The notes: generated by a model from the letters alone, not told the origin. A stretch of 64,000 bases of DNA from an uncultured delta proteobacterium (GCA_963817385.1 CAWFOM010000005.1:194596-258595), one strand, 5' to 3'; shown: positions 7,882 through 54,374, numbered from the stretch's first letter. Numbers and translations are program-made.

Positions 7882-8050
7882 TGACTTCGGAAAAAGCCCA
7901 TAGGCCGCGTTGCGCTTCCCCCCTCGTCGTTGCGGCGTACGAAGCAGTACGCCTCACTCCTCAGGGGTCGCGCGCCTTGCCTCCAGGTCTTTTTGCGAAG
8001 CCATCTGCCGCTGCCGGCTGTCTTGCGAAATTATTGGGGAGGCAGGAATA

Positions 8051-14870: not shown

Positions 14871-14891
14871 CGGATAGGATGTGAGGATGTC

Positions 14892-17151: not shown

Positions 17152-17933
17152 CACGACGGGCGGCCATGACCTATCTGTTCAGTGACGCCGGACTCGCGGC
17201 CTTGCACGCCTTCATCGATCCTGCAACCCTGTTCGCATTTGATCTCGACGGGACCCTCGTCCCCATTGTCGCCGGCCCCGGAGACATCCGGGTGCCGCAG
17301 GCTGTTCGTATGGCACTCGCCGAACTTAAGGATCGGGCGGCGATGGCGATCATCACCGGCCGTTCCCGAATGGACGCCCTGCATCATCTCGGCGTCGAAC
17401 CCCGGTACCTTGTCGGAAATCATGGGTCGGAAGGGCTCCCCGGGTGGGAACGGTACGAGGAGGATTTCAGGCGGCTGGCGGGCGAATGGGAACGGCAACT
17501 GCACGGGATGATTCCCGATGGAGAAACTTCAGGTATTGTGGTCGAAAACAAGGGCATGTCGGTTTCGATCCACTATCGCGGTGCCGGAAACAGGCCGGCG
17601 GCCCGATCTCTTGTGCTTAGCGCCATTGGCCGGCTCGTCCCCCAACCCCGGGTGGTCGGCGGGAAGTATGTCGAGAACCTGCTGCCCGAGGAAGCGCCCG
17701 ACAAGGGGGTGGCGCTCCTGCAACTGATGAGCCGGGCGGGATGTGCGAAGGGGTTTTTTGTGGGTGATGACCAGACCGATGAGGACGTCTTTCATCTGGA
17801 CCGGAAGGAGCTCTTCACCGTGCGCGTGGGGATCGGGACAAGAAGCAGGGCTTGCTTTTTCCTGCGGGACCAGGGAGAGATCCTGTTGCTCCTCCGCCAC
17901 GTTAATGATGCACTTGCACAAATGAATCCGTAA
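17148..17933 (+). CDS. otsB: Trehalose-6-phosphate phosphatase (HAD family)
   Basis: The HAD motif I FAFDLDGTLVPIV is present. Its ATG overlaps the otsA stop (ATGA). Confidence 0.85.
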   Translation: MTRRAAMTYLFSDAGLAALHAFIDPATLFAFDLDGTLVPIVAGPGDIRVPQAVRMALAELKDRAAMAIITGRSRMDALHHLGVEPRYLVGNHGSEGLPGWERYEEDFRRLAGEWERQLHGMIPDGETSGIVVENKGMSVSIHYRGAGNRPAARSLVLSAIGRLVPQPRVVGGKYVENLLPEEAPDKGVALLQLMSRAGCAKGFFVGDDQTDEDVFHLDRKELFTVRVGIGTRSRACFFLRDQGEILLLLRHVNDALAQMNP

Positions 17934-17982: not shown

Positions 17983-19350
17983 ATGTTGACACAAAGAGTT
18001 GCGAATTTTGTCGGCGGCGTACGGACAGAGGATATTCCCCGGGATGCGCTTGACAAAGCCCGCCTTGGGATTACCGATTTCATCGGTGTTGCCGTAGCGG
18101 GGTCGCAAGAAGAGTCGAGCAGGCTCATCAGGGAGTACGGAACCGCGATGGGCGGCGCGGCCGAGGCGAGCATTATCGCGGCGGACGGGAAAACGTCCAT
18201 CGAGATGGCGGCCCTGATCAACGGAACAATGGGGCACGCGCTGGATTACGATGACATGTCGGTTGCTCCGATCGCGCACCCGTCGGTATTCCTGGCCCCG
18301 GCCATTCTGGCGGTCGGCGAGAGCATCGATGCGCCGGGCCGGGAGGTCCTCGCGGCGTACGTCGTGGGGTATGAGGTTGCCTGTTGCGTCGCCGAGCCGA
18401 TGTTTCAGAGTCACTATGTCCAGGGATGGCACAGCACGTCCACATTCGGGAGCCTGGGGGCGGCGGCGGCGGTGGCGTGGCTGTTGAAGCTGAATCCCCG
18501 ACAGGTAACAATGGCGATAGGGATTGCGGCGTCCCTGGCGTGCGGGCTCAGGCAGAACTTCGGCACCATGACCAAGCCGCTGCACGCGGGCAAGGCGGGC
18601 GCGAACGGAGTTCAGGCAGCCTTTTTGGCCCGGGCGGGATTTACCGCCGATGCGAGTATTATCGAGGCGCCGCTGGGTTTTGCCAAGGTCATGGGACACA
18701 GCGCCGAGGTTGACTGGTCCGCCGTGGGAGCAAACTTGGGGAAGACGTTTGTGATTACCGGCCCGGTCGGCATTGCCATCAAGCCGTATCCGTCGTGCGG
18801 CTTTACCCACACGGCTATAGACTGTGCACTGGATCTCAGACAACAGGGGGTCAAGACCGAAGAGATCGTTGCGATTGAGTTGGGCACGACCCCCTTTGAC
18901 AGGCAACTGCTCATCCACCATCGACCCGGGACCGGATTGGAAGGAAAGTTCAGTCTTGAGTACTGCGTGGCCCGCGCTCTCGTCTCAGGGGCGGTCCGCT
19001 TGAACCACTTTTCCGACAAAGGGGTGCGGGAGCCTGATGTGCTCGGTTTGATGGGACGGATGAAATGGGTGGAGAAGTTCCCGATGCCGGTCATGGGGAC
19101 CCCGGAGGGGTTCGGCGCCAAGAGTGTGACCGTTACGCTGAGAAACGGCGAGAACCATGACTCAACAGTCCGTGTCGCCAAAGGGATGCCGACGAATCCG
19201 CTCAGTGCTCATGAATTCAACGCAAAGTATCGGGATTGCGCCTCCCGGGGTTTATCGGAGGAGGCGGTTGAGGAGTCGTTATCACTGCTGACCGGCATGC
19301 AGAGGGTGGATGCGGTGAGGAAAATTATGGAGCGGATATCCAAGGCATAA
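17983..19350 (+). CDS. MmgE/PrpD family protein (2-methylcitrate dehydratase-like)
   Basis: 455 aa with a PrpD-family N-terminus (RVANFVGGVRTEDIPRDALDKARLGITDFIGVAVAG) and full-length similarity. Confidence 0.9.
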   Translation: MLTQRVANFVGGVRTEDIPRDALDKARLGITDFIGVAVAGSQEESSRLIREYGTAMGGAAEASIIAADGKTSIEMAALINGTMGHALDYDDMSVAPIAHPSVFLAPAILAVGESIDAPGREVLAAYVVGYEVACCVAEPMFQSHYVQGWHSTSTFGSLGAAAAVAWLLKLNPRQVTMAIGIAASLACGLRQNFGTMTKPLHAGKAGANGVQAAFLARAGFTADASIIEAPLGFAKVMGHSAEVDWSAVGANLGKTFVITGPVGIAIKPYPSCGFTHTAIDCALDLRQQGVKTEEIVAIELGTTPFDRQLLIHHRPGTGLEGKFSLEYCVARALVSGAVRLNHFSDKGVREPDVLGLMGRMKWVEKFPMPVMGTPEGFGAKSVTVTLRNGENHDSTVRVAKGMPTNPLSAHEFNAKYRDCASRGLSEEAVEESLSLLTGMQRVDAVRKIMERISKA

Positions 19351-19607: not shown

Positions 19608-21188
19608 ATGACAACTGAGGCCCCGGCTATTTCGATTCATAAATCCCCTACCCCTGAATATCCGTTAAAACCCGTGCATCTTCCAAAATCGACAAAACGT
19701 CCGGGTCCTATGATTCCCCGGATGCGAAAAGTCTTTTTGATCTATTCATTCCTGGCGAATGCCCTTCTTCTCGGTGTCGGAACGGGCACCTGCCTGGCTT
19801 CCGGAACGGCGGCGGCTCATCCCATCGGTCAGTCCCTGGCCGTCTGGACGATCATTCCCTTCGCGGGGATCCTATTATCAATCGCCCTGTGTCCACTTCT
19901 GACGCCCCATTTCTGGCACCGTCATTTCGGAAAGGCATCGGCGTTCTGGGCGCTCCTGTTTGCCCTTCCGTTTCTGTATGTCTACCGGGGCGTCGCCTTT
20001 TACGAGATCCTCCACATCTTCCTTATCGATTATATCCCCTTCATCATCCTTCTCTGCGGGCTCTTCACGATATCCGGCGGCATCGTGCTGCGAGGCTCGC
20101 TCCGGGGTTCGCCCGCCGTCAACACCGTCATGCTGCTGATCGGGACCCTGCTGGCCTCTTTGATCGGCACAACAGGCGCTTCCATGGTGATGATCCGGCC
20201 GGTCCTCCGGGCCAATAAAAATCGCGTGAAGAAATCACACATTATCTGTTTTTTCATCTTCCTCGTGGCCAATATCGGGGGCTCCCTCACCCCCCTCGGC
20301 GATCCGCCCCTCTTCCTGGGCTTCCTGCACAACGTCCCCTTCTTCTGGGTGACGACGCACCTCCTGCCCCACATGCTGTTAGCTTCCCTGCTCCTTCTGG
20401 CCCTCTTTTATGTCATCGACCGGCACTACTTCCGTAAAGAGGAGAGGGAATCCCTGCCGCCGGCAACAACCACGGAAAAAGGCGAGGCGTTCGGGATCGA
20501 GGGCGTCCATAATTTCGCCCTTCTGGCCGGGGTCGTGGTTGTCATTCTCATCAGCGGCTACTGGCGGCCAGGTAATATTTCGGTCTTGGGCGTCACCGTC
20601 GATCTTCAGAACCTGCTCAGGGACGGGATGATCATCGTGCTGGGGCTCCTGTCCCTGTATAGTACGCCGAAACGGCTTCGGGAGGCCAACGAGTTCAGCT
20701 GGTTTCCCATCCTGGAGGTGGCGAAGCTCTTCGCCGCGATCTTCGTGACCATCATCCCGGCCCTGGCCATCCTGAAGGCCGGCACGCAGGGCGCCCTGGC
20801 AGCGCTTATCACGGCGGTCGAGACGCCCGCCCACTACTTCTGGGCCTCGGGCGCGCTGTCTTCCTTCCTTGACAACGCCCCAACCTACCTGACCTTTTTC
20901 AACATGGCCCTGGGGAAAATCGGGCTCTCCGAGGCGGCGGTGCCGGCGGCCCTGGCGGCGGGTACGGCCGCGACGAACCCCATCTTCATCAGCTACCTCC
21001 AGGCGATATCCGCCGGGGCGGTTTTCATGGGCGCCAACACTTATATCGGAAATGCCCCGAATTTCATGGTGAAATCGATCGCCGAAGAGGCGGGGGTGAA
21101 CATGCCCAGCTTTTTCGGTTACATGTTCAAGTACTCCATACCGTTCCTGATTCCGGTCTTTATTCTCATAACGTTTATCTTCTTTTAA
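19608..21188 (+). CDS. ArsB/NhaD/CitMHS-superfamily ion or anion permease
   Basis: 526 aa and polytopic, with the GGSLTPLGDPPLFLGF motif typical of this permease superfamily. A strong GGAGG RBS lies 5 nt upstream. Confidence 0.8.
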   Translation: MTTEAPAISIHKSPTPEYPLKPVHLPKSTKRPGPMIPRMRKVFLIYSFLANALLLGVGTGTCLASGTAAAHPIGQSLAVWTIIPFAGILLSIALCPLLTPHFWHRHFGKASAFWALLFALPFLYVYRGVAFYEILHIFLIDYIPFIILLCGLFTISGGIVLRGSLRGSPAVNTVMLLIGTLLASLIGTTGASMVMIRPVLRANKNRVKKSHIICFFIFLVANIGGSLTPLGDPPLFLGFLHNVPFFWVTTHLLPHMLLASLLLLALFYVIDRHYFRKEERESLPPATTTEKGEAFGIEGVHNFALLAGVVVVILISGYWRPGNISVLGVTVDLQNLLRDGMIIVLGLLSLYSTPKRLREANEFSWFPILEVAKLFAAIFVTIIPALAILKAGTQGALAALITAVETPAHYFWASGALSSFLDNAPTYLTFFNMALGKIGLSEAAVPAALAAGTAATNPIFISYLQAISAGAVFMGANTYIGNAPNFMVKSIAEEAGVNMPSFFGYMFKYSIPFLIPVFILITFIFF

Positions 21189-21203: not shown

Positions 21204-21791
21204 ATGAATGAGCAATATTACGAGGTTGTTGTCGAGGGTAACCTCGACCTGATGAAGGGGTTTGTGATGGGCTTTCTCGCGGGTCGGGGCATCGAAGGCA
21301 GCGTGTTCTTTGACCAAGAATGCCACATCGAAGGGGAGTGCTCAACGGGCCCTCTCATGCGGCTGATAGGCATCCGCGACAACGCCGGTATCGTGATCGT
21401 CGGATCGGGGCTCCATGACCTCCTCGTTGCCGTGCTGAACAGACATCCGCAGGTCATCCCGCTGCGCATCCGGAAAGTCCGTCAGGTGTTGAGCGCTGCA
21501 TTCGACTGCAAATTCCGGGCGTACTCCCGGGAGGTCGGCGCGGAGCTCAAGGAGATCTTCAGCCGGATTCCGGAAGGGGTTGACGGGGAATCGGGGTTTG
21601 AAATGCATGAAAAGCTCGATCCCGAGGGCAAGGGGTTGGAGATGTTCACCCCCCTTCACGATTATGAGTTGACGGGGAAGGGGCGGATAGCGGGTTCGGT
21701 AAAAGAGGTCCTGCATCTGTACCACCGGCTGGGACGCTTCGAGGTGGTCGAACTGGGTGAGCTGGAACTCACATTCGGGAAACCCTTGTGA
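21204..21791 (+). CDS. Hypothetical soluble protein, probably co-transcribed with the permease
   Basis: 195 aa. A GGGGAGGGGG RBS is present and the gene starts 15 nt after the permease stop. I recognise no motif. Confidence 0.7.
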   Translation: MNEQYYEVVVEGNLDLMKGFVMGFLAGRGIEGSVFFDQECHIEGECSTGPLMRLIGIRDNAGIVIVGSGLHDLLVAVLNRHPQVIPLRIRKVRQVLSAAFDCKFRAYSREVGAELKEIFSRIPEGVDGESGFEMHEKLDPEGKGLEMFTPLHDYELTGKGRIAGSVKEVLHLYHRLGRFEVVELGELELTFGKPL

Positions 21792-21938
21792 ATGCAGGTT
21801 CCGGCGCACCATACGGGGATGAAATCTCGATAAAATATCCTTGACACTCACAGCAGCCCATCGTAAACTCCCCGCGTGGAAAAGTAGGTCCTTATCAATA
21901 ACAACGTTCCAATGAAATGCAATCAAAGGAGGGAAACG

Positions 21939-22982
21939 ATGTTGAAGACAAGACCGAGTCACCAGTTCGCGGCATTCCTGGCGGCCCTTGCCGCCGTCTT
22001 CGCTTTTTCGGCGATCAATCCTGCTCATTCTGCAGAGCGCAAGTCGATCCGCTGGGCAACGTCCAGTACGGGCTCTTACGGCTATAAGGTCGCGGCCCAG
22101 ATGACCAAGGTGTTGGAGGACGCTCTCGGCGGCGAATATACCGTCACGGTCAATCCCTATCCATCGACCACCGCCGCCATGAAGGCGACGATGGACGGCA
22201 ATGGGGAGATCGGCTACACGGCCGACGTCGGGATGACCGAAGTCTATGAGGGCACCGGCGGCTTCAAGGACTACAAGGCCGCCAAATCGAATATGGTCCA
22301 CACCTGGTATGCATACCCGATGGAGTCGTTCATGGCCGTGTACGCGCCGAAAGCCGGCCAATTCAAGTCCTGGGGCGACTTCAGCGGCAAGCCGGTCTTC
22401 TTCACCCCCGCCGGCTTCATGAACTGGCTCAATTTCCAGCGCATCTTCAAGGCGCTCGGCTATCAGTTCAAACACGTCCAGATCGGCGAGGCGGCCCAGG
22501 GCGACGCGCTCCAGGGCGGCACCATTGTCGGCGCCGTCGCCTACACGACCGCCGGCCGGTCGCTCGCGTCCTACTGGCGCGAGACCGAGCTGCGCATCGA
22601 CATCAAGGTGATCAACCCGAGCCCGGAAGAGGTCAAGAAACTGACCGCGGCGGGCCTCGCCCCCGTGGAGATCGACCCGGCGAAGGCATTCAGCAAGGAC
22701 GTAGGCGTGAAGACGGTCCTGGGCGTGCCGATCCTCTTCGGCTACAACGTTCGCGCGGACATGCCCGAGGATGTCGTCTACAAGATGCTGGGCAGTTTCT
22801 ATAAGGAGCGTGACAACCTGGCCAAGGCCGATCCGGGTTTCGGACCCATGGCGCGCGACTTCGTCGGCATGCAGGTGAAAGGCATCAATGCCAATCCGAC
22901 CATTCCGGTGCATGCGGGGCTGGTGAAGTTCCTCAAAGATCATAAGGCGTGGAACGACAAGTGGAAGATCGCCGGCAAGTGA
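21939..22982 (+). CDS. TAXI-family TRAP transporter solute-binding protein
   Basis: It has a signal peptide (FAAFLAALAAVFAFSAINPAHSA) and a TAXI-like core (RWATSSTGSYGYKVAAQM...). An AAAGGAGGG RBS precedes the ATG at 21939. Confidence 0.88.
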   Translation: MLKTRPSHQFAAFLAALAAVFAFSAINPAHSAERKSIRWATSSTGSYGYKVAAQMTKVLEDALGGEYTVTVNPYPSTTAAMKATMDGNGEIGYTADVGMTEVYEGTGGFKDYKAAKSNMVHTWYAYPMESFMAVYAPKAGQFKSWGDFSGKPVFFTPAGFMNWLNFQRIFKALGYQFKHVQIGEAAQGDALQGGTIVGAVAYTTAGRSLASYWRETELRIDIKVINPSPEEVKKLTAAGLAPVEIDPAKAFSKDVGVKTVLGVPILFGYNVRADMPEDVVYKMLGSFYKERDNLAKADPGFGPMARDFVGMQVKGINANPTIPVHAGLVKFLKDHKAWNDKWKIAGK

Positions 22983-23254: not shown

Positions 23255-25216
23255 ATGCTGAGTGACCGGATTACGCGCCACGTTAACCTTCAGAACCTGA
23301 TATTCCTCTTGTCGATCTTCATGTTTGCCTGGCTATGCTGGTACTTCTACACCGGCTACGGCGGCCCGACCGAACTCGTGGCAAACCTTGTGCCGATCGC
23401 CCTGATGCTGCAGATCCTGCACCTGCACAAAAACGGTTTTATCTACAAGCGGCTGCCGCCGCTCGCGAATCATATCATCGTCGTTGTCTACCTCGCCGTC
23501 TGCTGTTACGCCTTCTACCATTTTCATGTGGAGTACGAGCAGATCTCGATCTGGCGGCAGGGTTCCTACACCACGGAAGATTTCATCATGGGCCTGTTGG
23601 TCTTCCTCCTGGTGATGGAGCTCTCACGGGTCGTCCATACTGAGTTGTTCTGGATGAACGCGGTTCTGGTGGTCTATACGCTTTGGGGTTACCTGAGCCC
23701 GGTCGACTTCTTCTGGCATCCGGGCACCTCCTTCTACCGGGTGATCACCTCGAGCACGGTCGAACTCTCAACCGGCATCTACGGGCAATACGCCCAGATC
23801 GCTCTGACGACGATCGCGGCGTTTTTGCTTCTGGCGGCGGCGGCGCGCGGCTTCGACGCCCAGGGGGCGATGGTCAGTTTCATGCAGCGGATCGCCGGAA
23901 AGTCGCGGCAAACGATCCCCCAGACGGCGGTGCTCGCCTCCTCCGCGGTCGGCATGATCAGCGGGAGCGGCGCGGCCAACGCCACCGTGGTCGGCGCCTT
24001 CACGATCCCGCTGATGAAACGCTACGGCGTCCCGGGGGAGTTCGCCGCTGCGGTGGAAACCGCGGCATCGATGGGCGGGCTCATCATGCCGCCGGTGATG
24101 GCGGTCGCCGGTTTCGTGATGGCGGAATTCCTCGGCGTCTCCTACTGGAGCGTGACGCTCCGCGGCTTTTCCCTCGCCTTCATTTACTACTCCACGCTCT
24201 CCCTGTCCGTGTATCTGCTGAGCGTGAGGCTGATGCCCTCCACGCCGATCGAGAAGATCACGTTGCCGGCCTACGACCAGATCAAGACGGCGATTTTCTT
24301 CATCGGGATCATCTTTCTCACCGTCCTGATGGGAGTGCTCAACTACGGGGAGCAGCTCGCAGGGCTCTATACCGGGGCCTTCATGTTCTCGCTCCTCATC
24401 CTGCTCTATCTCTATTTCAAGTATCTGCGGAAGGACCCGGCGGCGGACAAGGATTCGCTCTGGGCAAACATCCGCATCACGATCGAGACGCATGCCGAGA
24501 TGACCTCCTTCCTGACGCTGCTCCTGGCGACGCTCGGCATCATGGTCGGCCTGTTCACCGTTACCGGCTTCATCAACCGGATGGGAGGGATAATGCTGCG
24601 CGTCGGCGAGTGGAACGTCGTCGCCCTCATCCTGATGGCCTGGGTGTTCGGCTGGCTCGTCGGCGCGGGGCTCCCGCCGACGGCGACCTACATCGTTCTC
24701 GCGGTCATCATCGTGGACCCCATGCGCAAGCTCGGCATCGACCCCTGGATCGCGCATTTCTTCTGCTTTCTCTTGGCCGTGTGGGGCGAGCTGTCGCCGC
24801 CGACTTCGCTCGCCGCGGCGGTCTCCGCGCGGATCGCGGAGGCGTCATTCATCAAGACCATGTGGGAGGCGCTGAAACTCTGCCTGCCCATCACCATCAT
24901 GACATTTGCCATTTTCACCCGCTCCGACATCGTGGTAAGCCCGGGCTGGTGGCAGGTCGCCGATACCTTCATCGTGGCGCTCGGCTGCTGCAGCTTGACC
25001 TTCGCCCTGTTCGGAAGGTTTTTCCACAACGGGCGGGCGGACCTGATCATGCGCGCGGTATTTGCGCTCGCCGCGTTCGTGATGCTATTCCACCCGAATG
25101 ACAATGTACCCCGGATGATGGTCGTGATCGTCCTGCCGGCGGTGATTTACGGCGTCGTGCGCCACCGGCGGATCGCCCCGCCGAAGAGCGAGCCGCAGCC
25201 CCAGCCGGCCGTCTAA
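23255..25216 (+). CDS. TRAP transporter fused permease (TAXI-type DctQ-DctM fusion)
   Basis: 653 aa and highly hydrophobic. Its length and position next to the TAXI receptor fit this class. Confidence 0.9.
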   Translation: MLSDRITRHVNLQNLIFLLSIFMFAWLCWYFYTGYGGPTELVANLVPIALMLQILHLHKNGFIYKRLPPLANHIIVVVYLAVCCYAFYHFHVEYEQISIWRQGSYTTEDFIMGLLVFLLVMELSRVVHTELFWMNAVLVVYTLWGYLSPVDFFWHPGTSFYRVITSSTVELSTGIYGQYAQIALTTIAAFLLLAAAARGFDAQGAMVSFMQRIAGKSRQTIPQTAVLASSAVGMISGSGAANATVVGAFTIPLMKRYGVPGEFAAAVETAASMGGLIMPPVMAVAGFVMAEFLGVSYWSVTLRGFSLAFIYYSTLSLSVYLLSVRLMPSTPIEKITLPAYDQIKTAIFFIGIIFLTVLMGVLNYGEQLAGLYTGAFMFSLLILLYLYFKYLRKDPAADKDSLWANIRITIETHAEMTSFLTLLLATLGIMVGLFTVTGFINRMGGIMLRVGEWNVVALILMAWVFGWLVGAGLPPTATYIVLAVIIVDPMRKLGIDPWIAHFFCFLLAVWGELSPPTSLAAAVSARIAEASFIKTMWEALKLCLPITIMTFAIFTRSDIVVSPGWWQVADTFIVALGCCSLTFALFGRFFHNGRADLIMRAVFALAAFVMLFHPNDNVPRMMVVIVLPAVIYGVVRHRRIAPPKSEPQPQPAV

Positions 25217-25358: not shown

Positions 25359-27041
25359 ATGATTTTTCATGACATTGTGATCGTCGGCGGGGGGCTGACG
25401 GGGTTGATGGCCGCCGTGGAGGCGCCGCCCGGTACGGACGTGGCCGTCATCAGCAAGATCTATCCTACCCGCTCCCACAGCGGGGCCGCCCAAGGCGGTT
25501 TCAACGCCGCCATGGGGGCGGATGATTCGGTGGAGAGCCACGTGTTCGACACGGTGAAGGGCGGCGACTATCTGGGGGATCAGGACGCCATTGAAGTGCT
25601 CTGTTCCGAAGGTCCGGAGGTGATCCGGCAACTGGAACAGATGGGCGTGCCCTGGTCCCGGACCCCGGACGGCCGCCCGGCCCAGCGTTCCCTGGGGGGC
25701 GCGGGCTTTCCCCGGGCGTGCTACGCCGCCGATATCTCCGGCCACGTGGTGCTCCACACCCTGTATGAGCGTGCGCTGGGCGCCGGGGTGCGCATCTACC
25801 CCGAGCGGCACCTGGTGGAACTGCTCCTGGAAGACGGCGCCCTGGCGGGGCTCCTGGTGTACGACCTCGCCACAGGGCGGCTGGAAGTGGTCCGCTGCCG
25901 GGTGGCGCTCCTGGCCACCGGCGGATACGGACGGATATTCCGCAAGACCACCAACGGCCACGCCAACACCGGGGACGGCACGGCCGTCGCCTACCGGGCG
26001 GGGGCCGTCCTGGCCGATATGGAGTTCGTGCAATTCCACCCCACCACCCTTTACGGCACCAACATCCTGATTTCCGAAGCGGCCCGGGGCGAGGGTGGCT
26101 ACTTGCGCAACGCCTCCGGGGAGCGGTTCATGGCCCGGTACGCTCCGCAGAAGATGGAACTGGCGCCCCGGGACGTGGTTTCCCGCTCGATCTTCCAGGA
26201 AATCAAAGAAGGACGTGGGTTGGGCGACGGCTACATTGATCTTGATCTTACCCATCTGGGTCCGGACAAGATACTCCGGCAGCTGCCCCAGATAAATGAC
26301 CTGTCCCACCTTTACGCGGCGGTGGACCCGGCCCAAACGCCGATCCCCATCGAGCCCGCCCAGCATTACAGCATGGGCGGCATCCGGGTCAACCTGGACT
26401 GCGAAACCACTATCCCCGGGCTCTTGGCCGCCGGTGAAACGGCGAACGTAAGCGTGCACGGGGCCAACCGCCTGGGCGGCAATTCGCTCCTCGAAACGGT
26501 GGTGTTCGGCCGCCGGGCCGGCAGGCGCATGCTGGAGACGGCGAAGCGTCCAATCCCACCGCCCCCGCACGCTTCGCTGGATCTGGCCATGTCACGCTGG
26601 CGGGCCAATTTCGGCGCCGGCAAACCCCGCAAGCCGGGCGACTCCGCATCCGCGATACGCGGAGCCATGAACCGCATCATGACGGATAAAGTGGGAGTGT
26701 TCCGCACCGGGGGGGAACTCCGGGAGGCCGTGGAGGATCTGGCCGCCCTGCGCCGCCGCTACGAGAAGCTGCGGGTCCCCGCCGGGGAGCGCCCCTTCAA
26801 CAGCCAACTCATCGAACACCTGGAACTGGGCTGTCTGCTGGAACTCAGCGAGATTACCGCCGGAGCCGCCTGCAGGCGCACTGAGAGCCGCGGCGCGCAC
26901 TACCGGCTCGACCACCCACGGCGAGATGATGCCAACTGGCTGAACCATACGTTGGTTCGGCGGGGCGGCGACGGGCAGCCGATGTATGAGGCCGGCCCCG
27001 TCACGATCACCCGGCTCCAGCCCCAGGAAAGGGGGTACTGA
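25359..27041 (+). CDS. Fumarate reductase/succinate dehydrogenase flavoprotein subunit, second copy
   Basis: 560 aa with [56 protein letters not shown] and RGAHYRLD motifs. Confidence 0.93.
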
Positions 27042-27042
27042 T

Positions 27043-27693
27043 ATGCGGCTCACCTTGAACGTCACCCGTTTCGACCCGCAAGCCGACGACAAACCCTCCT
27101 GCCGAACATACACCGTCGACTGGGAACGGCACGAAACCGTGCTGGATCTGCTCATGAGAGCGAGGCTTCAGGACCCCTCCCTGGCCTTCAGGCGCTCCTG
27201 CCGCAGCGGCATCTGCGGCTCCTGCGGTATGCACATCGGGGGCCGTTCCCGGCTTGCCTGCCAGACGCTGGTCCGGGAGGTGGCCGGCGACGGGGGCGGC
27301 CTGAGCATAACGCCGCTGCCGGGCTTCCGGCAGCTCAAAGATCTGGTGGTGGACATGGATCCATTCTTCGATGCGCTCAAGAGGGTGCTCCCCTGGGTCA
27401 TCACGATTCCGAACCATAACGGGCTGATTTCACCGGAGGATTCGGGGCTGATCGAGCCTCCCGCCACCTGCATCCTGTGCGGCGTCTGCGACGCCGAGGT
27501 GCATCCAGGCGGCAGGATTACCCCCGCCGCCCTGGTGAAAAACGTGCGGCTGGCGGTCGATCCCCGCGACGCCCTGGGGGGAGAGAGAATGAAGATCACC
27601 GGACTGTCACAAGAAGGACTGCACACGTTTAGGGAACTGCTCGCATCGGTCTGCCCCAAGGGGATCAAACTTCCTCCCGTGGCTCTGGAATAA
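27043..27693 (+). CDS. SdhB/FrdB-like iron-sulfur subunit lacking the [3Fe-4S] ligand set
   Basis: 216 aa with the 2Fe-2S motif CRSGICGSCGMHIGGRSRLAC. CILCGVC is followed by DAEVHP (no fourth Cys-Pro). Only one distal CP (SVCPKG) is present. The gene starts 1 nt after the flavoprotein stop. Confidence 0.85.
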   Translation: MRLTLNVTRFDPQADDKPSCRTYTVDWERHETVLDLLMRARLQDPSLAFRRSCRSGICGSCGMHIGGRSRLACQTLVREVAGDGGGLSITPLPGFRQLKDLVVDMDPFFDALKRVLPWVITIPNHNGLISPEDSGLIEPPATCILCGVCDAEVHPGGRITPAALVKNVRLAVDPRDALGGERMKITGLSQEGLHTFRELLASVCPKGIKLPPVALE

Positions 27694-27823: not shown

Positions 27824-29689
27824 TTAAAGGTCTTTTATACTATCTCCGAGGTCCAGCTTTTTCAAGGTCTCCGCTATGGGTTTACCGGTTTTGGGATCCC
27901 ATCCCATGAGGGTGTAATAATTTTCAATCATCCAATCCCATTTTTCCATGATATTTACCCCTTTCGCCGGACCATCGACCGGTATTGATCCATAGCGGGC
28001 GGAAGGACGCTCCAGTTCTTTCTTGAGACCGTGCCGGACGTTGAACATCCTCAACTGGTTGATGATACGTAGCCCTAACGTAAAAGCGTCCTCAAGGGTC
28101 CAGTTCCAGCCGGTGACTGCATTAAAGCATGCCAAGACCATTTTCGGGGCAGGTGATGCCAGCCGGCAGATGCCGACACAATCGTCAAATTGCCGGATAC
28201 CGTTGTATTTGGCGTTAAACGTGGAAATCTCTTCGTGTGAGAACTGATTCTCAACCGGCTCCATATTTACCAGCTCCGGTTGCACGCCCGCCCAGGTTGC
28301 CTCGATGGTGCCGGTGTTGGATAAACACGTGTCCATCAGTTCGAACCATCGGGTCTTCCCCCGATGATCATGCCCTCTGGGAGCAGCGCCTTTTTGCGTA
28401 TAGACCGCCCAATCTGCCGCTTCTCCACCTACTGTTCGGGAAGCCCGCATCACCCCTTCAGCAAGCAAATTCCCGAGATATCCCTCTCTTTTGGCGATAC
28501 GATTGAGAAGCTCCTTAACCGACTCCACCTTTCCCCAGGAAAGATCGAGGCCATCGGTATCCTTGGTAGTAAAGATGCCCTTCTCGAAGCATTCCATAGC
28601 CCAGCCGACGACCCAACTCGCTTCGTTACAATCTATCCCCAGTTTGTCCACCTCATTAGCGAGCATCACAACGGCGCCCAGGTCCGTGTTTCCGATTTGG
28701 GGGCCCCATGCCGAGAGTTGTTCATACTCAGGCTCTTCCCCAACAAACCCCGTGTAGGGACCTTCCGTGACGGTAGCTTCCTTGACGTGGGCAAGTCCGC
28801 ATTTATAACAGGGTTTAGAACGGATTTTAAAATGGGTTCTCAAATATTGACCGCTCATTCTCTCATGTTCGGGGAAAATGTTCGTGGTGTAATTCTTGAC
28901 CGGCAGGGATCCATCAGCATGGATTCTCGAAAAACTTCCGCCGGTGCCCCATTGATAATACTGTCCGCCCGCGCGAGTCTTTGCATACTCGATCAGCTCT
29001 TTGGCTTTCTCCTTGAGCAATCCTGGATCGAGTACGCCGAAGGCGGGTTTTGCCCGGTACGCCACGACCGCTTTGAGATTTTTTGAACCCATCACCGCCC
29101 CGAGACCGTTGTGCCCTGCCACGTGGCCTTCATCTCCCGTGATGCAGGCATAGCGAACCAAATTCTCGCCTGCGGGCCCAATGCCGTAAATGCTGACTTC
29201 CATCTTTTTTACCGCCAGATCGGATCGAATCTGACGCTCGGTGTCGCTGACATCCTTTCCTGCAAGATGTTCGGCATCATGAATCGTTGCGTTCCCGTCT
29301 TTGATGACCACGTAGATCAGTTTCGGGGATTTGCCCCTGAATATGATCCCGTCGTATCCGGAAAATTTCAGATAAGCGCCGAAGAATCCATTTGCCTGAG
29401 ACGAACCCGCAAGATTCGTCATCGGGCCCTTCGCCATAATATTTATTGTTGCAGCCCCCGCAACATCGGTCCCTGCTAAAGGTCCGGTGGTCCAGATCAA
29501 TCTGTTTTCCGCATCGGACCACTCTACCCCCGGAGGAACTTCCTCATATAGATACTTTGCCCCCAGGCCGACCCCACCAACCCATTTTTTGACATCAGCC
29601 AGACTCAATTCCTCTGATCCCGTCTTTCCGGTGGAAAGATCAATCCGTAAAACCTTTCCCGCATACCCGATACGTGTCAAGTCTGTCAT
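27824..29689 (-). CDS. aor: Aldehyde:ferredoxin oxidoreductase (tungstopterin AOR family)
   Basis: 621 aa with the N-terminus GYAGKVLRIDLSTGK...GGVGLGAKYLYEE and full-length AOR-family likeness. Confidence 0.93.
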   Translation of the reverse strand: MTDLTRIGYAGKVLRIDLSTGKTGSEELSLADVKKWVGGVGLGAKYLYEEVPPGVEWSDAENRLIWTTGPLAGTDVAGAATINIMAKGPMTNLAGSSQANGFFGAYLKFSGYDGIIFRGKSPKLIYVVIKDGNATIHDAEHLAGKDVSDTERQIRSDLAVKKMEVSIYGIGPAGENLVRYACITGDEGHVAGHNGLGAVMGSKNLKAVVAYRAKPAFGVLDPGLLKEKAKELIEYAKTRAGGQYYQWGTGGSFSRIHADGSLPVKNYTTNIFPEHERMSGQYLRTHFKIRSKPCYKCGLAHVKEATVTEGPYTGFVGEEPEYEQLSAWGPQIGNTDLGAVVMLANEVDKLGIDCNEASWVVGWAMECFEKGIFTTKDTDGLDLSWGKVESVKELLNRIAKREGYLGNLLAEGVMRASRTVGGEAADWAVYTQKGAAPRGHDHRGKTRWFELMDTCLSNTGTIEATWAGVQPELVNMEPVENQFSHEEISTFNAKYNGIRQFDDCVGICRLASPAPKMVLACFNAVTGWNWTLEDAFTLGLRIINQLRMFNVRHGLKKELERPSARYGSIPVDGPAKGVNIMEKWDWMIENYYTLMGWDPKTGKPIAETLKKLDLGDSIKDL

Positions 29690-29801: not shown

Positions 29802-30365
29802 TTATCGGGAACCGTTAACCCGATAACGGGATCTCCCCTCTTCGTAAAGATCACCGCCATATATATCGTTGATAACCGTCACCGGAAAATCCTGCACGTC
29901 GATCCGCCGGAGGGCCTCCGCCCCTAAATCTTCATAGGCGATGACCTCAACCCGCCTGATGCAGCGTGAAATCAGGGCGCCTGCGCCGCCGATGGCTCCA
30001 AGATAAACGGCCCCATATTTTTTCATCGCTTCCCGCACTTTCCGGGATCGCATCCCCTTGCCGACCATCCCTTTGAGCCCCTCGGCCATAAGCCGGGGGG
30101 AGTAGGCGTCCATCCGGTAACTGGACGTTGGTCCGGCGGATCCGACGATCTTCCCCGGTCTTGCCGGAGTCGGCCCCATGAAATAGATCACCTGGCCCTT
30201 CAGATCAACGGGAAGCCGCTCCCCCGCCTCCAGGGTTTCGATCATCCGTTTATGGGCCGCATCGCGTCCGACGTACATCACCCCCGTGAGAAGGAGCTCG
30301 TCGCCCGTATGGAGCGTTTCCACAACATCATCGCTCAGGGGGAGTTTTACCAGTCTGGCAATCAT
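29802..30365 (-). CDS. Class I (Fe-S) fumarate hydratase, beta subunit
   Basis: 187 aa with GVMYVGRDAAHKR and GPTSSYRMD motifs. It lies immediately downstream of the alpha subunit gene. Confidence 0.92.
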   Translation of the reverse strand: MIARLVKLPLSDDVVETLHTGDELLLTGVMYVGRDAAHKRMIETLEAGERLPVDLKGQVIYFMGPTPARPGKIVGSAGPTSSYRMDAYSPRLMAEGLKGMVGKGMRSRKVREAMKKYGAVYLGAIGGAGALISRCIRRVEVIAYEDLGAEALRRIDVQDFPVTVINDIYGGDLYEEGRSRYRVNGSR

Positions 30366-30380
30366 TCCCTCCTCCCTCCC

Positions 30381-31226
30381 TCAGAGAGTCGCTCCCCGGT
30401 GTCTGACACTGTGACATTGGAGATTAACCGCCACGGGAAGGGCGGCGATATGAGTGGGAAAGACCTCGACATGAACGGCCAGGGCGGTGATCCTCCCTCC
30501 GTAGCCCATAGCCCCGATCCCCAGGGCATTGACGCGGTTTAATATCTCGTTTTCGAGCCCGGCAATCTCGGAATCCGGGTGCGGATCGCCTACCCTGCGG
30601 AGAAGCGCCTGTTTAGCCAAGAGCATGCATTTTTCCGCAGTCCCCCCGATCCCCACACCGACGATAACGGGCGGACAGGGGTTGGCGCCCGCCGCATCGA
30701 CAGATTTCACGACAAAATCGATGACTCCCTGACGCCCCTCGGCGGGGGTCAGCATCGCGAGCCGGCTCATGTTCTCACTGCCAAACCCTTTCGAGAGGGC
30801 GGTAATTTTCAGCTTTTCGCCCGGTACTATCGCGGTATGGATCACCGCCGGCGTATTGTCCCCGGTGTTTGTTCTCACTGAAAACGGTTTCTCAACTATC
30901 GATTTGCGCAGGTATCCATCGGCATACGCACGACGCACGCCCCCCTGAACGGCCTCGTAAAGATCCCCTCCGATGACATGCACGTCCTGTCCCAGCTCCA
31001 GAAAAACTACCGCCATACCTGTGTCCTGGCATAACGGGACTTCATCCCCGGCCGCGGTTTGCGCGTTTTCCCGCAATTTGGCAAGCACGTTGCGAGCCGC
31101 CGGGGATTCTTCCCGTTCCTCCGCCAGCATGAGGGCGGTCATCACGTCTTCCGGGAGGTGGTAACAGGCATCCTGCAGAAGCGTGGAAATGGTTTCCGTC
31201 ACCAGGTTTGCATGGATTTCCCGCAT
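30381..31226 (-). CDS. Class I (Fe-S) fumarate hydratase, alpha subunit
   Basis: 281 aa with PLCQDTGMAVVF and GVGIGGT motifs. Confidence 0.92.
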   Translation of the reverse strand: MREIHANLVTETISTLLQDACYHLPEDVMTALMLAEEREESPAARNVLAKLRENAQTAAGDEVPLCQDTGMAVVFLELGQDVHVIGGDLYEAVQGGVRRAYADGYLRKSIVEKPFSVRTNTGDNTPAVIHTAIVPGEKLKITALSKGFGSENMSRLAMLTPAEGRQGVIDFVVKSVDAAGANPCPPVIVGVGIGGTAEKCMLLAKQALLRRVGDPHPDSEIAGLENEILNRVNALGIGAMGYGGRITALAVHVEVFPTHIAALPVAVNLQCHSVRHRGATL

Positions 31227-37957: not shown

Positions 37958-38028
37958 ATTTACACCTTTACTAAAAATCAGCCATCCGGGCGACGCCCGG
38001 ATGGCTGATCGATGATGTCGTGGACCTT

Positions 38029-39213: not shown

Positions 39214-39530
39214 AATACCCTCCTCCTTAGTTATTGGTAAAAATTGACTGCCTGACTTGAGAACCCATTCACCCGACACTAATTAACAGGACCTATGCCG
39301 AAACCCTGCGGTTTCGGTTAATCGGTTGCCATTTTACCGGTGTTCTGCGAATCGTTTATCCAATGCATGTAAGGCAGAGATGAGAGAATATGACGAGGGG
39401 ACCATTTCCTGCTGAACGCATCCGACATGTGGTTAATATCCAACATCAATCATCCCGTTCGCGAGAACCGCACAACCAAGGCATCTGAAAGATTGCTAAA
39501 TTATATTAATCACTTATATAAGCGCATCGT

Positions 39531-47176: not shown

Positions 47177-47186
47177 GAGAGACGAA

Positions 47187-54368: not shown

Positions 54369-54374
54369 GAGGCC

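Follow-up and report, generated by a model that had tools for sequence, protein, structure and literature searches.

Anchorless relatives of complex II

Pairs of SdhA- and SdhB-type proteins that are encoded without a membrane anchor have been noted before. S. fumaroxidans carries such a copy, SdhAB-1 (Sfum_0172-0174), which Plugge et al. regarded as "not a conventional Sdh or Frd", and Pelotomaculum thermopropionicum carries SDH2 (PTH_1490-1492), which was called a "cytoplasmic FRD" (Kosaka et al. 2023). The membrane-bound enzyme has also been adapted to methylsuccinate: the F119L substitution in E. coli SdhA arose independently in two evolutions that selected for growth on this compound, it raises kcat/KM for turning methylsuccinate into mesaconate about two-fold, and an engineered E. 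coli module of Sdh F119L, FumA and a citramalate-cleaving lyase takes methylsuccinate to pyruvate and an acetyl unit. Of methylsuccinate, it is the S enantiomer that E. coli Sdh uses. The genes for the known methylsuccinate isomerases always adjoin a methylsuccinyl-CoA dehydrogenase gene and are found almost only in Pseudomonadota (Gonner et al. 2025). Here we compare with these systems a second SdhA/SdhB-type pair in a 64,000-nucleotide stretch of DNA from an uncultured delta proteobacterium (the whole stretch is called the window below).

The sdhA2/sdhB2 gene pair

The sdhA2 gene (bp 25359-27041, + strand) encodes a SdhA/FrdA-type flavoprotein of 560 amino acids with Pfam FAD_binding_2 and Succ_DH_flav_C domains, and sdhB2 (bp 27043-27693, + strand) encodes an iron-sulfur subunit of 216 amino acids that matches Pfam Fer2_3 (104 bits) and is part of family alignment A1; both reading frames are intact. 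The full sdhB2 open reading frame spans bp 26986-27693, and the ATG at bp 27043 is almost certainly the real start, since it lies one base past the sdhA2 stop codon, has GGAAAGGGGG on its 5' side and gives a length that matches those of the 213-217-amino-acid homologs. Translation of this SdhB-type gene is coupled to that of sdhA2. SdhA2 scores above the cut-off of NCBIfam TIGR01812 (707.7 bits; cut-off 567.3) and SdhB2 above that of TIGR00384 (150 bits; cut-off 88), and the two score 502 bits against M. smegmatis Sdh2 (6LUM_A) and 118 bits against E. coli SdhB (1NEK_B), respectively. Alignment to 1NEK_A and 6LUM_A places the covalent-FAD histidine of SdhA2 at His40 and the catalytic residues at His227, Ser239/Glu240, Arg271, His336 and Arg371; these correspond to E. 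coli H45, H242, T254-E255, R286, H354 and R399 and are invariant among family members. No signal peptide is predicted on SdhA2. Assignment of SdhA2 as the L-aspartate oxidase NadB was rejected, as its TIGR00551 score of 391 falls below the cut-off of 452.75 and an SdhB-type partner gene is present.

The region upstream of the pair, all on the + strand, includes genes for a 455-amino-acid MmgE/PrpD-family protein of the epimerase/isomerase type (bp 17983-19350; Pfam), a CitMHS_2-family carboxylate transporter (bp 19608-21188; Pfam, 611 bits) that is missing from the syntenic locus L007, a TAXI-family TRAP solute-binding protein (bp 21912-22982; TIGR02122, 90.5 bits, cut-off 84.35) and a fused TRAP permease of the DctQM type (bp 23255-25216; TIGR02123, 361 bits, cut-off 320). 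Downstream, on the - strand, an aldehyde:ferredoxin oxidoreductase (AOR)-family gene (bp 27824-29689; Pfam AFOR_N and AFOR_C) is convergent with sdhB2, and beyond it lies a two-subunit class I (Fe-S) fumarate hydratase (bp 29802-31226; beta 29802-30365, alpha 30381-31226; NF005310 and NF004885 above cut-off), which occupies the same position in L007. The first-pass annotation of this DNA had placed the TRAP permease and the AOR gene on either side of the pair in the same way. Any link between the AOR-family gene and the pair is uncertain. L020 and L024 have AOR-like genes in the neighborhood of the pair, and L007 has none.

That annotation had also seen no sdhC/D-like gene on either side of the pair, and this extends well beyond the window. 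No sdhC/D-like gene, CCG-domain gene or small hydrophobic open reading frame adjoins the pair in the window, and no SdhC/SdhD-type anchor gene lies within 10 kb of it there or in more than 20 related loci. A 195-amino-acid open reading frame between the two transporters (bp 21204-21791, + strand) has no Pfam or NCBIfam match; its hydropathy profile is that of a soluble protein, so it is not expected to be an anchor. Identity as a type E SQR/QFR or as TfrAB was rejected as well: there is no CCG match among the annotated neighbors, and the TfrB model gives 89.9 bits against a cut-off of 385.

Iron-sulfur ligands of SdhB2

Ligands were assigned from a HMMER alignment of SdhB2 to E. coli SdhB (1NEK_B). 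The four [2Fe-2S] ligands, Cys53, Cys58, Cys61 and Cys73 (bp 27199-27261, + strand), correspond to E. coli C55, C60, D63 and C75 and are invariant in alignment A1. All four [4Fe-4S] ligands are present and likewise invariant in A1, C143, C146, C149 and C204 corresponding to E. coli C149, C152, C155 and C216; the first three form the ferredoxin motif C143-x2-C146-x2-C149, which is followed by DAEVHP (bp 27469-27507, + strand), and the fourth is retained as Cys204-Pro205 in a shortened second motif, FRELLASVCP (bp 27628-27657, + strand). The three [3Fe-4S] ligands have no counterpart: the residues opposite E. coli C159 and C212 are Val153 and Leu200, and C206 falls against a gap. SdhB2 ends 11 residues past its last Cys-Pro. 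Its sole extra cysteine, C20, is not conserved.

The first-pass annotation had quoted the motifs CRSGICGSCGMHIGGRSRLAC (2Fe-2S), CILCGVC, DAEVHP and SVCPKG, all of which are present, and had concluded that the Cys-Pro that normally follows CILCGVC is replaced and that the [2Fe-2S] and [4Fe-4S] clusters are kept with all three [3Fe-4S] ligands gone. The alignment agrees on each point, Val153 standing at the C159 position, and the pattern is moreover conserved throughout the family. The second motif is indeed reduced to a single CP, but its canonical form is C-x5-C-x3-CP and not the C-x6-C-x3-CP given there.

A conserved two-cluster family

The same cysteine pattern (4/4 + 4/4 + 0/3) is found in 187 of 191 homolog cluster representatives. 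Among 90 fetched loci, the 23 that score above 330 bits and two intermediates all lack the three [3Fe-4S] cysteines, and all 65 canonical SdhB proteins, the window's SdhB1 among them, have 11 of 11; HMM score, cysteine pattern and tail length separate these 25 family loci cleanly from the 65 canonical proteins. The tail past the last Cys-Pro is 8-31 residues long in the family and at least 21 in the canonical SdhB proteins of the same scan; in complex II structures this tail touches the anchor and the quinone site. The SdhB proteins of three added loci (L091-L093) score 331-359 bits with the family HMM. In a neighbor-joining tree of the flavoprotein, an analysis that the earlier annotation had proposed, the family SdhA proteins are monophyletic (20 of 20 tips) and form one clade apart from canonical SdhA. 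The hosts of this clade are strictly anaerobic syntrophs and sulfate reducers of the Syntrophales, Syntrophobacterales and Desulfobaccales, relatives of Pelotomaculum and Desulfotomaculum, and some Chloroflexota. No description of the family definition, its active-site change or its pathway context was found in the literature.

Across phyla and down to 49% identity there is no variation in the eight ligands that remain, in the catalytic residues or in the family-specific residues, which argues for purifying selection; on such sequence evidence the SdhB2 cysteine pattern is not a product of decay, and SdhA2B2 is a predicted cytoplasmic, anchorless member of the SdhAB/FrdAB family that forms a distinct clade. 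With membrane anchor, C-terminal tail and [3Fe-4S] cluster all lost, the [4Fe-4S] cluster should be the terminal center, and use of quinone by SdhA2B2 should be impossible. The family-wide loss of the third cluster and the absence of an anchor thus favor the soluble, quinone-independent enzyme that had been suggested from the window.

The substrate pocket of SdhA2

The dicarboxylate pocket of SdhA2 has Leu112 (codon at bp 25692-25694, + strand) in its "FGG" loop, aligned with E. coli F119, a residue 3.9 Å from the substrate analog in 2WDV; in Chloroflexus SdhA, the FGGA loop is part of the lining of the succinate pocket. Leucine occupies this position in all 20 family members and in L091-L093 (23 of 23), and phenylalanine in 40 of 41 canonical SdhA proteins, including the window's SdhA1. 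In residues flanking the pocket the family differs further, with Asn for Gly at 235 (Asn235), Phe for Ile at 48, and AQ ahead of His336. An "ISEA(A/V)RGEGG" loop is found in M. smegmatis Sdh2 as well. The leucine is suggestive of a methylsuccinate-type substrate, though not decisively so: since the gain from F119L in E. coli is only two-fold, leucine alone is no proof of specificity, and the remaining dicarboxylate-binding residues are identical to those of true succinate dehydrogenases, which counts against the methylsuccinate reading.

The PrpD-family companion and gene context

A PrpD-like gene lies no more than 10 kb from the pair in 15 of 20 loci across phyla, and also in L091 and L093; two of the five loci without one within 10 kb are short contigs. 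The closest solved relative of the PrpD-like protein is iminodisuccinate (IDS) epimerase (210 bits, versus 112 bits for cis-aconitate decarboxylase). Residues H85, D88, H99, Y145, H150, K198 and K266, which are the catalytic set of IDS epimerase and methylsuccinate isomerase, are all kept by the window protein and by 16 of 16 linked homologs, and the second-base Tyr145 is Met in cis-aconitate decarboxylase. A 2-methylcitrate dehydratase (PrpD) was rejected for this neighbor (46 bits against a cut-off of 950; 32 against 575). There is no acyl-CoA dehydrogenase gene in its neighborhood; SdhA2B2 holds that position. An epimerase companion would have a rationale in the use of the S enantiomer by E. 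coli Sdh. The PrpD-like gene beside the SdhAB2 homolog in the L006 genome is expressed in a syntrophic propionate oxidizer.

The order lyase, CoA ligase, PrpD-like, SdhA, SdhB recurs frequently. An operon with a CitE/RipC-like lyase and a SucCD-like ligase is present in 7 of the 20 loci, and 6 of the 20 as well as L092 have a family III CoA-transferase akin to the succinyl-CoA:mesaconate transferases; no lyase, ligase or CoA-transferase gene was found near the pair in the window. Class I fumarase adjoins the pair in the window, L007 and L011 and lies nearby in L009. Hydration of mesaconate by class I fumarase is given in PMC12290011 (Fig. 6 legend), and the window's enzyme is a candidate mesaconase. 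The context fits succinate and fumarate too, with the pair beside fumarase in the window, L007 and L009 and a methylmalonyl-CoA pathway cluster in L009. Candidate redox partners are encoded directly 3' of the pair in a related locus (a 62-amino-acid ferredoxin) and directly upstream of sdhA in L009 and L093 (an FrhB-like 2x[4Fe-4S] protein); tblastn found no FrhB-like sequence anywhere in the window.

Proposed function and alternatives

What is observed is the pattern of ligands, the family as such, the synteny and the substitution in the active site. Building on them, there is about an even chance that SdhA2B2 is a cytoplasmic, quinone-independent oxidoreductase for a substituted succinate, most likely the (S)-methylsuccinate/mesaconate couple, in a branched C5-dicarboxylate pathway. 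The invariant leucine and the catalytic set of the PrpD-like neighbor strengthen the "(methyl)succinate-type dehydrogenase" option of the first-pass annotation, and its hint that the PrpD gene and the TRAP transporter mark a dedicated C4/C5-dicarboxylate pathway is borne out by the PrpD synteny across phyla (15 of 20 loci). Judging from the retained ligands, electrons would run between the covalent FAD, [2Fe-2S] and [4Fe-4S], and the soluble partner may be a small ferredoxin or, in some genomes, the FrhB-like flavo-iron-sulfur protein encoded next to the pair. The substrate would most probably be a C2-substituted pair rather than succinate and fumarate themselves. Gene content suggests that the PrpD-family neighbor is an epimerase resembling methylsuccinate isomerase, by which the other enantiomer is supplied or removed, that class I fumarase hydrates mesaconate to citramalate, and that a SucCD-like CoA ligase or family III CoA-transferase, with a CitE/Ccl-like lyase, could in other genomes link citramalate to acetyl-CoA and pyruvate. 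Either imported methylsuccinate may be oxidized, or mesaconate-type acids may be reduced as an electron sink. Oxidation of a succinate-type C-C bond has a potential of about 0 to +30 mV and is unfavorable with ferredoxin or NAD+, so a purely catabolic, oxidative role would be without an obvious acceptor.

A plain soluble fumarate reductase or reversible succinate dehydrogenase, reducing fumarate in the cytoplasm with electrons that NADH or ferredoxin supplies through a soluble partner, and serving fumarate fermentation or a reductive TCA branch as proposed for P. thermopropionicum SDH2, is a rather unlikely alternative. In Kosaka et al. (2023), the anchorless SDH2 (FrhB-like protein, SdhA and SdhB) is credited with the NADH:fumarate oxidoreductase activity that P. 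thermopropionicum extract shows in soluble form, and the contig with the Pelotomaculum FrhB-like gene encodes an SdhB of the SdhB2 family; however, that attribution comes from a crude-extract assay on fumarate and not from a purified enzyme, and the S. fumaroxidans copy went undetected in proteomes, those of fumarate-grown cells included. Every succinate-binding catalytic residue is retained, fumarase adjoins the pair in the window and L007, L009 has its methylmalonyl-CoA pathway cluster, and a low-potential terminal [4Fe-4S] cluster would suit a reductase; but the invariant Phe-to-Leu change and the lyase/ligase operon are left unexplained, as is the near-universal link to a PrpD protein of the epimerase type, an activity for which succinate and fumarate, both achiral, have no need, and the motif Gln in SdhA2 is an "SQR-type" residue according to the literature.

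A bulkier substituted succinate is improbable, be it tricarballylate/aconitate (TcuA chemistry), an alkylsuccinate or an iminodisuccinate-like compound. In the tricarballylate variant citrate would come from aconitate through hydration by the PrpD-like protein and then be cleaved by a Ccs-like ligase and a CitE-like lyase, and there are pointers to citrate in the ligase beta subunit of L012 and L009 (matching Pfam Citrate_bind instead of Ligase_CoA), in the lyase (best against citE, 242 bits, versus 178 for RipC/Ccl) and in the CitMHS_2 "citrate transport" gene of the window and the CitMHS genes of L091. PrpD-family substrates include tricarboxylates, the modeled methylsuccinate isomerase pocket could fit larger C3 substituents, and Leu for Phe would free space for larger groups. 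Yet the PrpD-like protein is closer to epimerases than to 2-methylcitrate dehydratase or cis-aconitate decarboxylase and has the two-base Tyr, the nearest family III CoA-transferases act on C2-C5 dicarboxylates, and tricarballylate finds no supporting model match, all scores to named families being below cut-off. It is very improbable indeed that the pair is quinone-linked or membrane-docked through an anchor or third cluster from another locus (such as the Rieske/cytochrome b genes in the first sdh cluster), or is a decaying, non-functional paralog. A canonical SdhA1B1-Rieske-cytochrome b cluster does lie 15-19 kb upstream in the window and occurs in L007, L010 and L011, sdhA1 is frameshifted in this assembly, and proteomics did not detect S. 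fumaroxidans SdhAB-1; but the Rieske/cytochrome b linkage is confined to the window's close relatives, a signal peptide is absent from the flavoprotein, the C-terminal tail is short in all members, and the invariance of ligands, catalytic and family-specific residues across phyla speaks for purifying selection.

Returning to the methylsuccinate reading, a narrower proposal can be made tentatively, at somewhat less than an even chance: SdhA2B2 would be a natural, dedicated, soluble two-cluster Sdh-type methylsuccinate:mesaconate oxidoreductase, linked to ferredoxin or an FrhB-like protein, in an undescribed anaerobic free-acid C5 route. That route would combine SdhA2B2 and the epimerase that partners it with class I fumarase and with a system that cleaves citramalate or citramalyl-CoA, and its acids would include methylsuccinate made from itaconate. 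It may be catabolic, or it may be a disproportionation in which one part of an unsaturated acid is cleaved, giving acetyl-CoA plus pyruvate, and another is reduced as an electron sink.

If this is right, the complex II catalytic dimer has been repurposed in anaerobes as a soluble enzyme for substituted succinates, and the subfamily can be recognized by eight rather than 11 cysteines, a short C-terminus and leucine at the F119 position. All family genes are now annotated as "succinate dehydrogenase/fumarate reductase", which may mislead metabolic reconstruction of syntrophic propionate oxidizers, in which succinate oxidation is the energetic bottleneck. Methylsuccinate and related C5-dicarboxylates are abundant in anoxic habitats; their metabolism there, and the roles of many uncharacterized PrpD-family proteins, become testable. 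Synthetic CO2-fixation designs depend on E. coli SdhA F119L, and a natural enzyme could replace the mutant.

Comparison with known systems

SdhA2B2 shares with the SdhA/SdhB and FrdA/FrdB subunits of complex II (1NEK, 1KF6, 6LUM) the two-subunit fold, the covalent-FAD histidine, the catalytic His/Arg/His/Arg and the [2Fe-2S] and [4Fe-4S] ligands, but it lacks the [3Fe-4S] ligands, has a short C-terminus and the pocket leucine, and falls in a separate clade; with no membrane anchor it should have no quinone site. S. fumaroxidans SdhAB-1 and P. thermopropionicum SDH2 similarly have no transmembrane subunit and an incomplete set of Fe-S motifs. Family members are present in a Syntrophobacter sp. 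locus (CoA-transferase, SdhA, SdhB), and in L093, a contig with the Pelotomaculum FrhB-like gene, the SdhB is within the family HMM range with the two-cluster cysteine pattern and the SdhA has LGG, N and AQHY; we infer that Sfum_0172-0174 and PTH_1490-1492 belong to the SdhA2B2 family. Plugge et al. read the [4Fe-4S] motif of SdhAB-1 as missing, whereas in our alignment of SdhB2 all four ligands are retained. Unlike P. thermopropionicum SDH2, the window pair has no FrhB-like gene upstream of sdhA.

The lab-evolved "methylsuccinate dehydrogenase", E. coli SdhA F119L, shares the Phe-to-Leu change at this position of the pocket; the E. coli enzyme, with its single engineered change, is bound to the membrane, has three clusters and is linked to quinone, and SdhA2B2 is natural, soluble and two-cluster, with more pocket-flanking changes. 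TfrAB, the type E SdhABEF/FrdABEF enzymes and the five-subunit NADH-fumarate reductase of Hydrogenobacter are likewise non-classical complex II relatives without a heme b anchor, but they have CCG/HdrB-like domains or extra subunits and a third cluster or a substitute for it, and SdhB2 has no such neighbor. TcuA belongs to the same flavoprotein superfamily and desaturates a substituted succinate. Unlike SdhA2 it has no SdhB-type partner, using the membrane Fe-S protein TcuB instead, and it is not among the best 25 NCBIfam matches of SdhA2. Finally, the PrpD-like companion resembles the (S)-(R)-methylsuccinate isomerases (PA0881 and C. necator Q0K3E6) and IDS epimerase 2HP0 in its MmgE/PrpD fold and in H85, D/E88, H99, Y145, H150, K198 and K266, but, unlike the genes of the characterized methylsuccinate isomerases, its gene adjoins SdhA2B2, and does so in anaerobes.

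The anchorless SdhA2B2 pair and its surroundings

The SdhA2B2 genes lie on the forward strand, and an ORF check of the window finds both where the first-pass annotation had placed them. The first, sdhA2 (25359–27041), encodes a 560-aa flavoprotein with FAD_binding_2 and Succ_DH_flav_C domains; its score with the NCBIfam SdhA/FrdA subfamily model is 707.7 bits, above the cut-off of 567.3, and inspection of its sequence found no signal peptide. The sdhB2 ORF spans 26986–27693; judging from the sequence its true start is almost certainly the ATG at 27043, one base 3′ of the sdhA2 stop and with a GGAAAGGGGG stretch just 5′ of it, since the resulting length of 216 aa is common to its homologs. Domain and family-model searches also bear out the earlier description of the neighboring genes. 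Upstream of the pair on the same strand are a PrpD-family gene (17983–19350), a CitMHS_2 transporter, a soluble 195-aa ORF with no family match, a TAXI binding protein gene and a fused TRAP permease gene; convergent and downstream are an aldehyde:ferredoxin oxidoreductase (AOR)-family gene (27824–29689, reverse strand) and a two-subunit class I fumarase, also on the reverse strand. The TAXI binding protein has a single weak match among solved structures, which is uninformative on its ligand. There are no small hydrophobic ORFs in either intergenic region flanking the pair, a scan for sigma-70 promoters and terminators gave no interpretable signal for it, and matches in a sigma-54 pattern search were no more numerous than expected by chance.

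Carboxylate uptake systems are unusually abundant in the window, with two TctC genes, one TctA gene and a DctPQM TRAP system besides the TAXI-TRAP and CitMHS_2 transporters; uptake systems and dehydrogenase-like genes occupy 53189–57884 and 35399–39279 (both reverse strand) and 44637–48071 (forward strand). Because these systems and 3-hydroxyisobutyrate-dehydrogenase-like genes (three, one of them at 4625–5563) are so plentiful, the window suggests a region given over to organic-acid metabolism. The gap from the first sdh cluster to the PrpD-like gene is filled by GH15 glycosidase/trehalase-like, GT20 (trehalose-6-phosphate synthase-like) and trehalose phosphatase genes (13080–17933, forward strand), in place of which the syntenic locus L007, from a Syntrophales MAG, has only a TPR gene.

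The first sdh cluster (6171–10306, forward strand) is composed of SdhA1, SdhB1 (with all 11 Cys), a Rieske protein (8791–9261) and a cytochrome b/b6-type protein (9242–10306), without SdhC or SdhD, and the order is identical in three loci from other genomes (L007, L010 and L011). Such a Rieske/cytochrome b module replacing the classical anchor is unusual. An apparent frameshift lies in sdhA1 at about 6262–6270: its first 31 residues (MIAHDILIVGGG...GLI) read in one frame and everything after them (KVYPTRSHSIAAQGG...) in the +1 frame, as a single additional base would produce; it is either an assembly indel or the mark of a pseudogene. The TRAP large permease gene dctM (35399–37334, reverse strand) is likewise split between two frames that overlap at 36453–36550, and its L007 ortholog is intact (639 aa). 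With at least two apparent frameshifts, assembly indels are possible in the window; sdhA2 and sdhB2 are intact.

Iron-sulfur ligands and the SdhB2 family

Every motif quoted in the first-pass annotation is present in SdhB2, and alignment to E. coli SdhB upholds its reading that all three [3Fe-4S] ligands are gone and the other two clusters kept. The [2Fe-2S] ligands are C53, C58, C61 and C73, and the [4Fe-4S] ligands C143, C146, C149 and C204 align with E. coli C149, C152, C155 and C216; the E. coli [3Fe-4S] ligands C159, C206 and C212 are replaced by Val153, a gap and Leu200, respectively. Supply of the missing ligands from elsewhere in SdhB2 is rejected, as the invariant cysteines number only eight and conservation does not extend to the ninth, C20. 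In complex II the C-terminal tail of SdhB contacts both anchor and quinone site; this tail is shortened in SdhB2, which stops 11 residues after its last Cys-Pro. An AlphaFold2 model of SdhB2 has a confident N-terminal domain and low-confidence cluster loops (mean pLDDT 74.7), and Foldseek with this model matched SdhB/FrdB only, at a TM of about 0.5.

A first protein search gave 1274 matches, and all 120 of the 120 listed (identity down to 49%) lack the three [3Fe-4S] cysteines and keep the other eight. After a second search, 187 of 191 cluster representatives have the full [2Fe-2S] (4/4) and [4Fe-4S] (4/4) ligand sets and no [3Fe-4S] ligand (0/3). Of the other four, three are short of one cysteine from the retained set of eight, and the fourth has one Cys among the three [3Fe-4S] positions. 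Such family-wide conservation rules out chance or decay as the origin of the SdhB2 cysteine pattern. A profile made from an alignment of 30 family members was applied to 90 loci, mostly taken from a scan of species-representative genomes that gave at least 80. The 23 family loci score at least 331 bits, lack the three cysteines and have tails of 8–17 residues after the last Cys-Pro, and the 65 canonical SdhBs, including the window's SdhB1 (ORF 7910–8794), score at most 198 bits, have 11/11 cysteines and have tails of at least 21 residues; two Chloroflexota loci are intermediate (about 240 bits, three cysteines missing, tails of 21 and 31 residues). The comparisons drew on some 23 non-redundant family loci, with ORFs of fetched loci called mechanically and neighboring genes grouped by BLAST. 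In a tree with 41 canonical SdhAs, built by the neighbor-joining method only, the flavoproteins whose genes immediately precede those of family SdhBs group as one clade (20/20 tips).

The family occurs in Syntrophales (where L007 is syntenic with the window), Syntrophobacterales/Syntrophobacteraceae, Desulfobaccales, one Desulfomonile MAG, Pelotomaculum spp., Desulfovirgula and Desulfoscipio geothermicus, and on the Chloroflexota side in one Anaerolineales and one Chloroflexia MAG. Neither P. thermopropionicum nor S. fumaroxidans is named among the SdhB matches listed; the probable tie between the family and their published loci is drawn through loci L092 and L093 (the latter a Pelotomaculum-type contig). 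Anchorless two-cluster SdhABs have been noticed before in part and are uncharacterized. S. fumaroxidans sdhAB-1 has no transmembrane subunit, and its SdhB was read as missing both the [4Fe-4S] and [3Fe-4S] motifs and “not a conventional Sdh or Frd” (Plugge et al. 2012); it was undetected in proteomes. The Pelotomaculum copy has been termed a cytoplasmic fumarate reductase (Kosaka et al.). Our literature searches turned up no definition of the family, no assignment of its retained [4Fe-4S] ligands, no mention of the pocket leucine described below, and no connection of the pair with a C5-dicarboxylate route and a PrpD protein of the epimerase type.

The flavoprotein pocket

SdhA2 retains the covalent-FAD His and all catalytic residues. 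Comparison of 20 family with 41 canonical SdhAs for positions fixed in the family and different elsewhere gave a short list, several of which border the dicarboxylate site. Leu112, at the position of E. coli F119, is Leu in 20/20 family members and Phe in 40/41 canonical proteins; the window's SdhA1 has Phe here, and three further family loci have Leu. Asn235 (E. coli G250, in the active-site loop) is Asn in 20/20 and Gly in 38/41, respectively. Phe48 (E. coli I53, after the AAQGG motif) is Phe in 18/20 and mostly Ile (31/41) in canonical proteins, and Ala334-Gln335 (E. coli T352-C353, before catalytic His336) are each conserved in 19/20, where canonical proteins have Gly or Thr and then Ala, Met or His. 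In the Chloroflexus enzyme the succinate pocket is made by two loops, of which the FGGA loop is one. According to two preprints, E. coli evolved to methylsuccinate dependence gained sdhA F119L; F119 lies 3.9 Å from the substrate analog in 2WDV, the mutant's catalytic efficiency for methylsuccinate to mesaconate is up about two-fold, and the S enantiomer of methylsuccinate is a substrate of the wild-type enzyme. The family's invariant natural Leu, sitting at the F119 position, is thus the same change that was selected in the laboratory for methylsuccinate use.

A second, shorter flavoprotein (534 aa) that clusters with SdhA-type sequences is encoded in Desulfoscipio geothermicus (L013, 13335–14939). 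Its gene, 3 kb downstream of the pair, follows a sigma-54 activator and has no adjoining SdhB; a search of the protein for the FGG-loop, active-site-loop (S/T-E-x2-RGEG) and P-x2-HY-x-MGG motifs found none of them.

The PrpD-like protein and conserved gene neighbors

Among solved structures the closest relative of the PrpD-like protein is iminodisuccinate epimerase (210 bits). Cis-aconitate decarboxylase scores lower (112 bits) and has Met at the Tyr145 position, and so is disfavored as its function, as is 2-methylcitrate dehydratase (46 bits against a cut-off of 950). In the itaconate cluster of Pseudomonas/Cupriavidus, the PrpD-family member acts as an (S)-(R)-methylsuccinate isomerase, by a two-base His/Tyr mechanism; a C2/C3-substituted succinate backbone is common to all substrates of that PrpD family, and the mesaconase role in this metabolism is filled by a class I fumarase (Gonner et al. 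2025). The seven catalytic residues listed there (H85, D/E88, H99, Y145, H150, K198 and K266) are kept in the window protein and in 16/16 family-linked homologs. Plasmid-borne homologs are at most 39% identical and mostly uncharacterized; among the closest, one from a Haloprofundus plasmid (38.8%) lies beside acyl-CoA dehydrogenase, MaoC hydratase, CoA-transferase and TAXI binding protein genes, a cluster of the methylsuccinate/itaconate type. Literature searches on the family together with PrpD yielded only a remark on the Peptococcaceae MAG that is the source of locus L006: its PrpD-like gene is expressed in a propionate oxidizer and of unknown function (Singh et al. 2023). In L006 a PrpD-like gene adjoins the SdhAB2 homolog.

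In 20 non-redundant family loci, ORFs up to 10 kb away from the pair were grouped into clusters. An SdhA-type gene lies directly upstream in 20/20 and a PrpD-family gene is present in 15/20 (of the five loci without one, two are short contigs), as well as in L091 and L093. A CitE/HpcH-like lyase with SucC-like and SucD-like CoA ligase subunits occurs in 7/20 loci, from Bacillota, Thermodesulfobacteriota and Chloroflexota, usually in the order lyase, ligase beta, ligase alpha, PrpD-like, SdhA, SdhB, and this operon is often preceded by a sigma-54 activator. The lyase scores 242 bits with citE and 178 bits with the itaconate-pathway lyase RipC/Ccl. A family III CoA-transferase, akin to succinyl-CoA:dicarboxylate transferases including the mesaconate enzyme, is present in 6/20 loci and in L092. 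There is no third subunit common to all loci; ferredoxin, FrhB-like, DUF1847, DJ-1/PfpI, CMD and AtuA plus DUF4387 genes each accompany only some. The ferredoxin has 62 aa and the FrhB-like protein two [4Fe-4S] motifs, and each is encoded beside the pair in some genomes. A tblastn search of the window found no FrhB-like protein, DUF1847, small ferredoxin, family III CoA-transferase or HpcH lyase.

Several less frequent neighbors deserve mention. Cys-rich DUF1847 genes, whose product could be a metal-binding partner or maturation factor, lie directly downstream of sdhB2 homologs in L009 (10651–11292), L013 (10781–11371) and L021 (10680–11312). AtuA-family and DUF4387 genes lie beside the PrpD-like/SdhAB genes in L091 (4470–6160, a Syntrophobacteraceae MAG) and L093 (3709–5440). 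In L004 (4415–6349) and L019 (4449–6383), of a Bacillota propionate-oxidizer lineage, a 644-aa flavoprotein of the Old-Yellow-Enzyme/enoate-reductase type (Oxidored_FMN plus Pyr_redox_2) is encoded behind a sigma-54 activator and before PrpD-like, SdhA, SdhB and ferredoxin genes. AOR-family genes lie near the pair in three unrelated genomes, the window (27824–29689), L020 (16570–18273) and L024 (3509–5284). In the latter two, iron-type alcohol dehydrogenases and a gene with a metallo-beta-lactamase fold occur alongside them; AOR and SdhA2B2 may be functionally linked.

Possible function of SdhA2B2

SdhA2B2 is an SdhAB-type pair with a flavin site, [2Fe-2S] and [4Fe-4S] ligand sets and a modified pocket, without third cluster or anchor, and its linkage to C-C-lyase/CoA-activation genes and to a PrpD protein of the epimerase type is conserved. 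Its [4Fe-4S] cluster would be the point at which electrons enter or leave to a soluble partner, for which the 62-aa ferredoxin or the FrhB-like protein of some genomes are candidates; the window encodes neither. The strongest rival to a C5-dicarboxylate role is a plain soluble fumarate reductase. Kosaka et al. assigned the soluble NADH:fumarate reductase activity that they measured in P. thermopropionicum extract to the anchorless SDH2 (FrhB-like, SdhA and SdhB), and in L093, whose SdhB is a family member, the gene order is PrpD-like, FrhB-like, SdhA, SdhB. However, that assignment is based on a crude-extract assay, and a fumarate reductase would account for neither the Leu nor the epimerase nor the lyase operon.

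Tricarballylate, aconitate or another bulky substrate is a further rival, one that agrees with the ligase's match to Citrate_bind, the lyase's lean toward citE and the CitMHS transporters, but the PrpD protein is epimerase-like and the CoA-transferases are of the dicarboxylate type. That the pair uses a borrowed anchor or is decaying is unlikely given its conservation. As the substrate pair we favor a 2-substituted succinate that is chiral, together with its unsaturated counterpart, most likely (S)-methylsuccinate/mesaconate, whose enantiomers would be interconverted by the PrpD-like protein.

The transporters, sigma-54 activators and lyase suggest catabolism of an imported acid. Oxidation of a succinate-type bond, at about 0 to +30 mV, has no evident electron acceptor where neither quinone nor membrane potential is used, and a terminal cluster of low potential is suited to reduction. 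Speculatively, these catabolic and reductive hints would be reconciled by a disproportionation of unsaturated C5 acids. In the (S)-methylsuccinate/mesaconate route, the class I fumarase would supply citramalate, from which the ligase or transferase and the lyase would yield acetyl-CoA and pyruvate. These are the same steps as in the engineered E. coli module composed of Sdh F119L, FumA and citramalate lyase.
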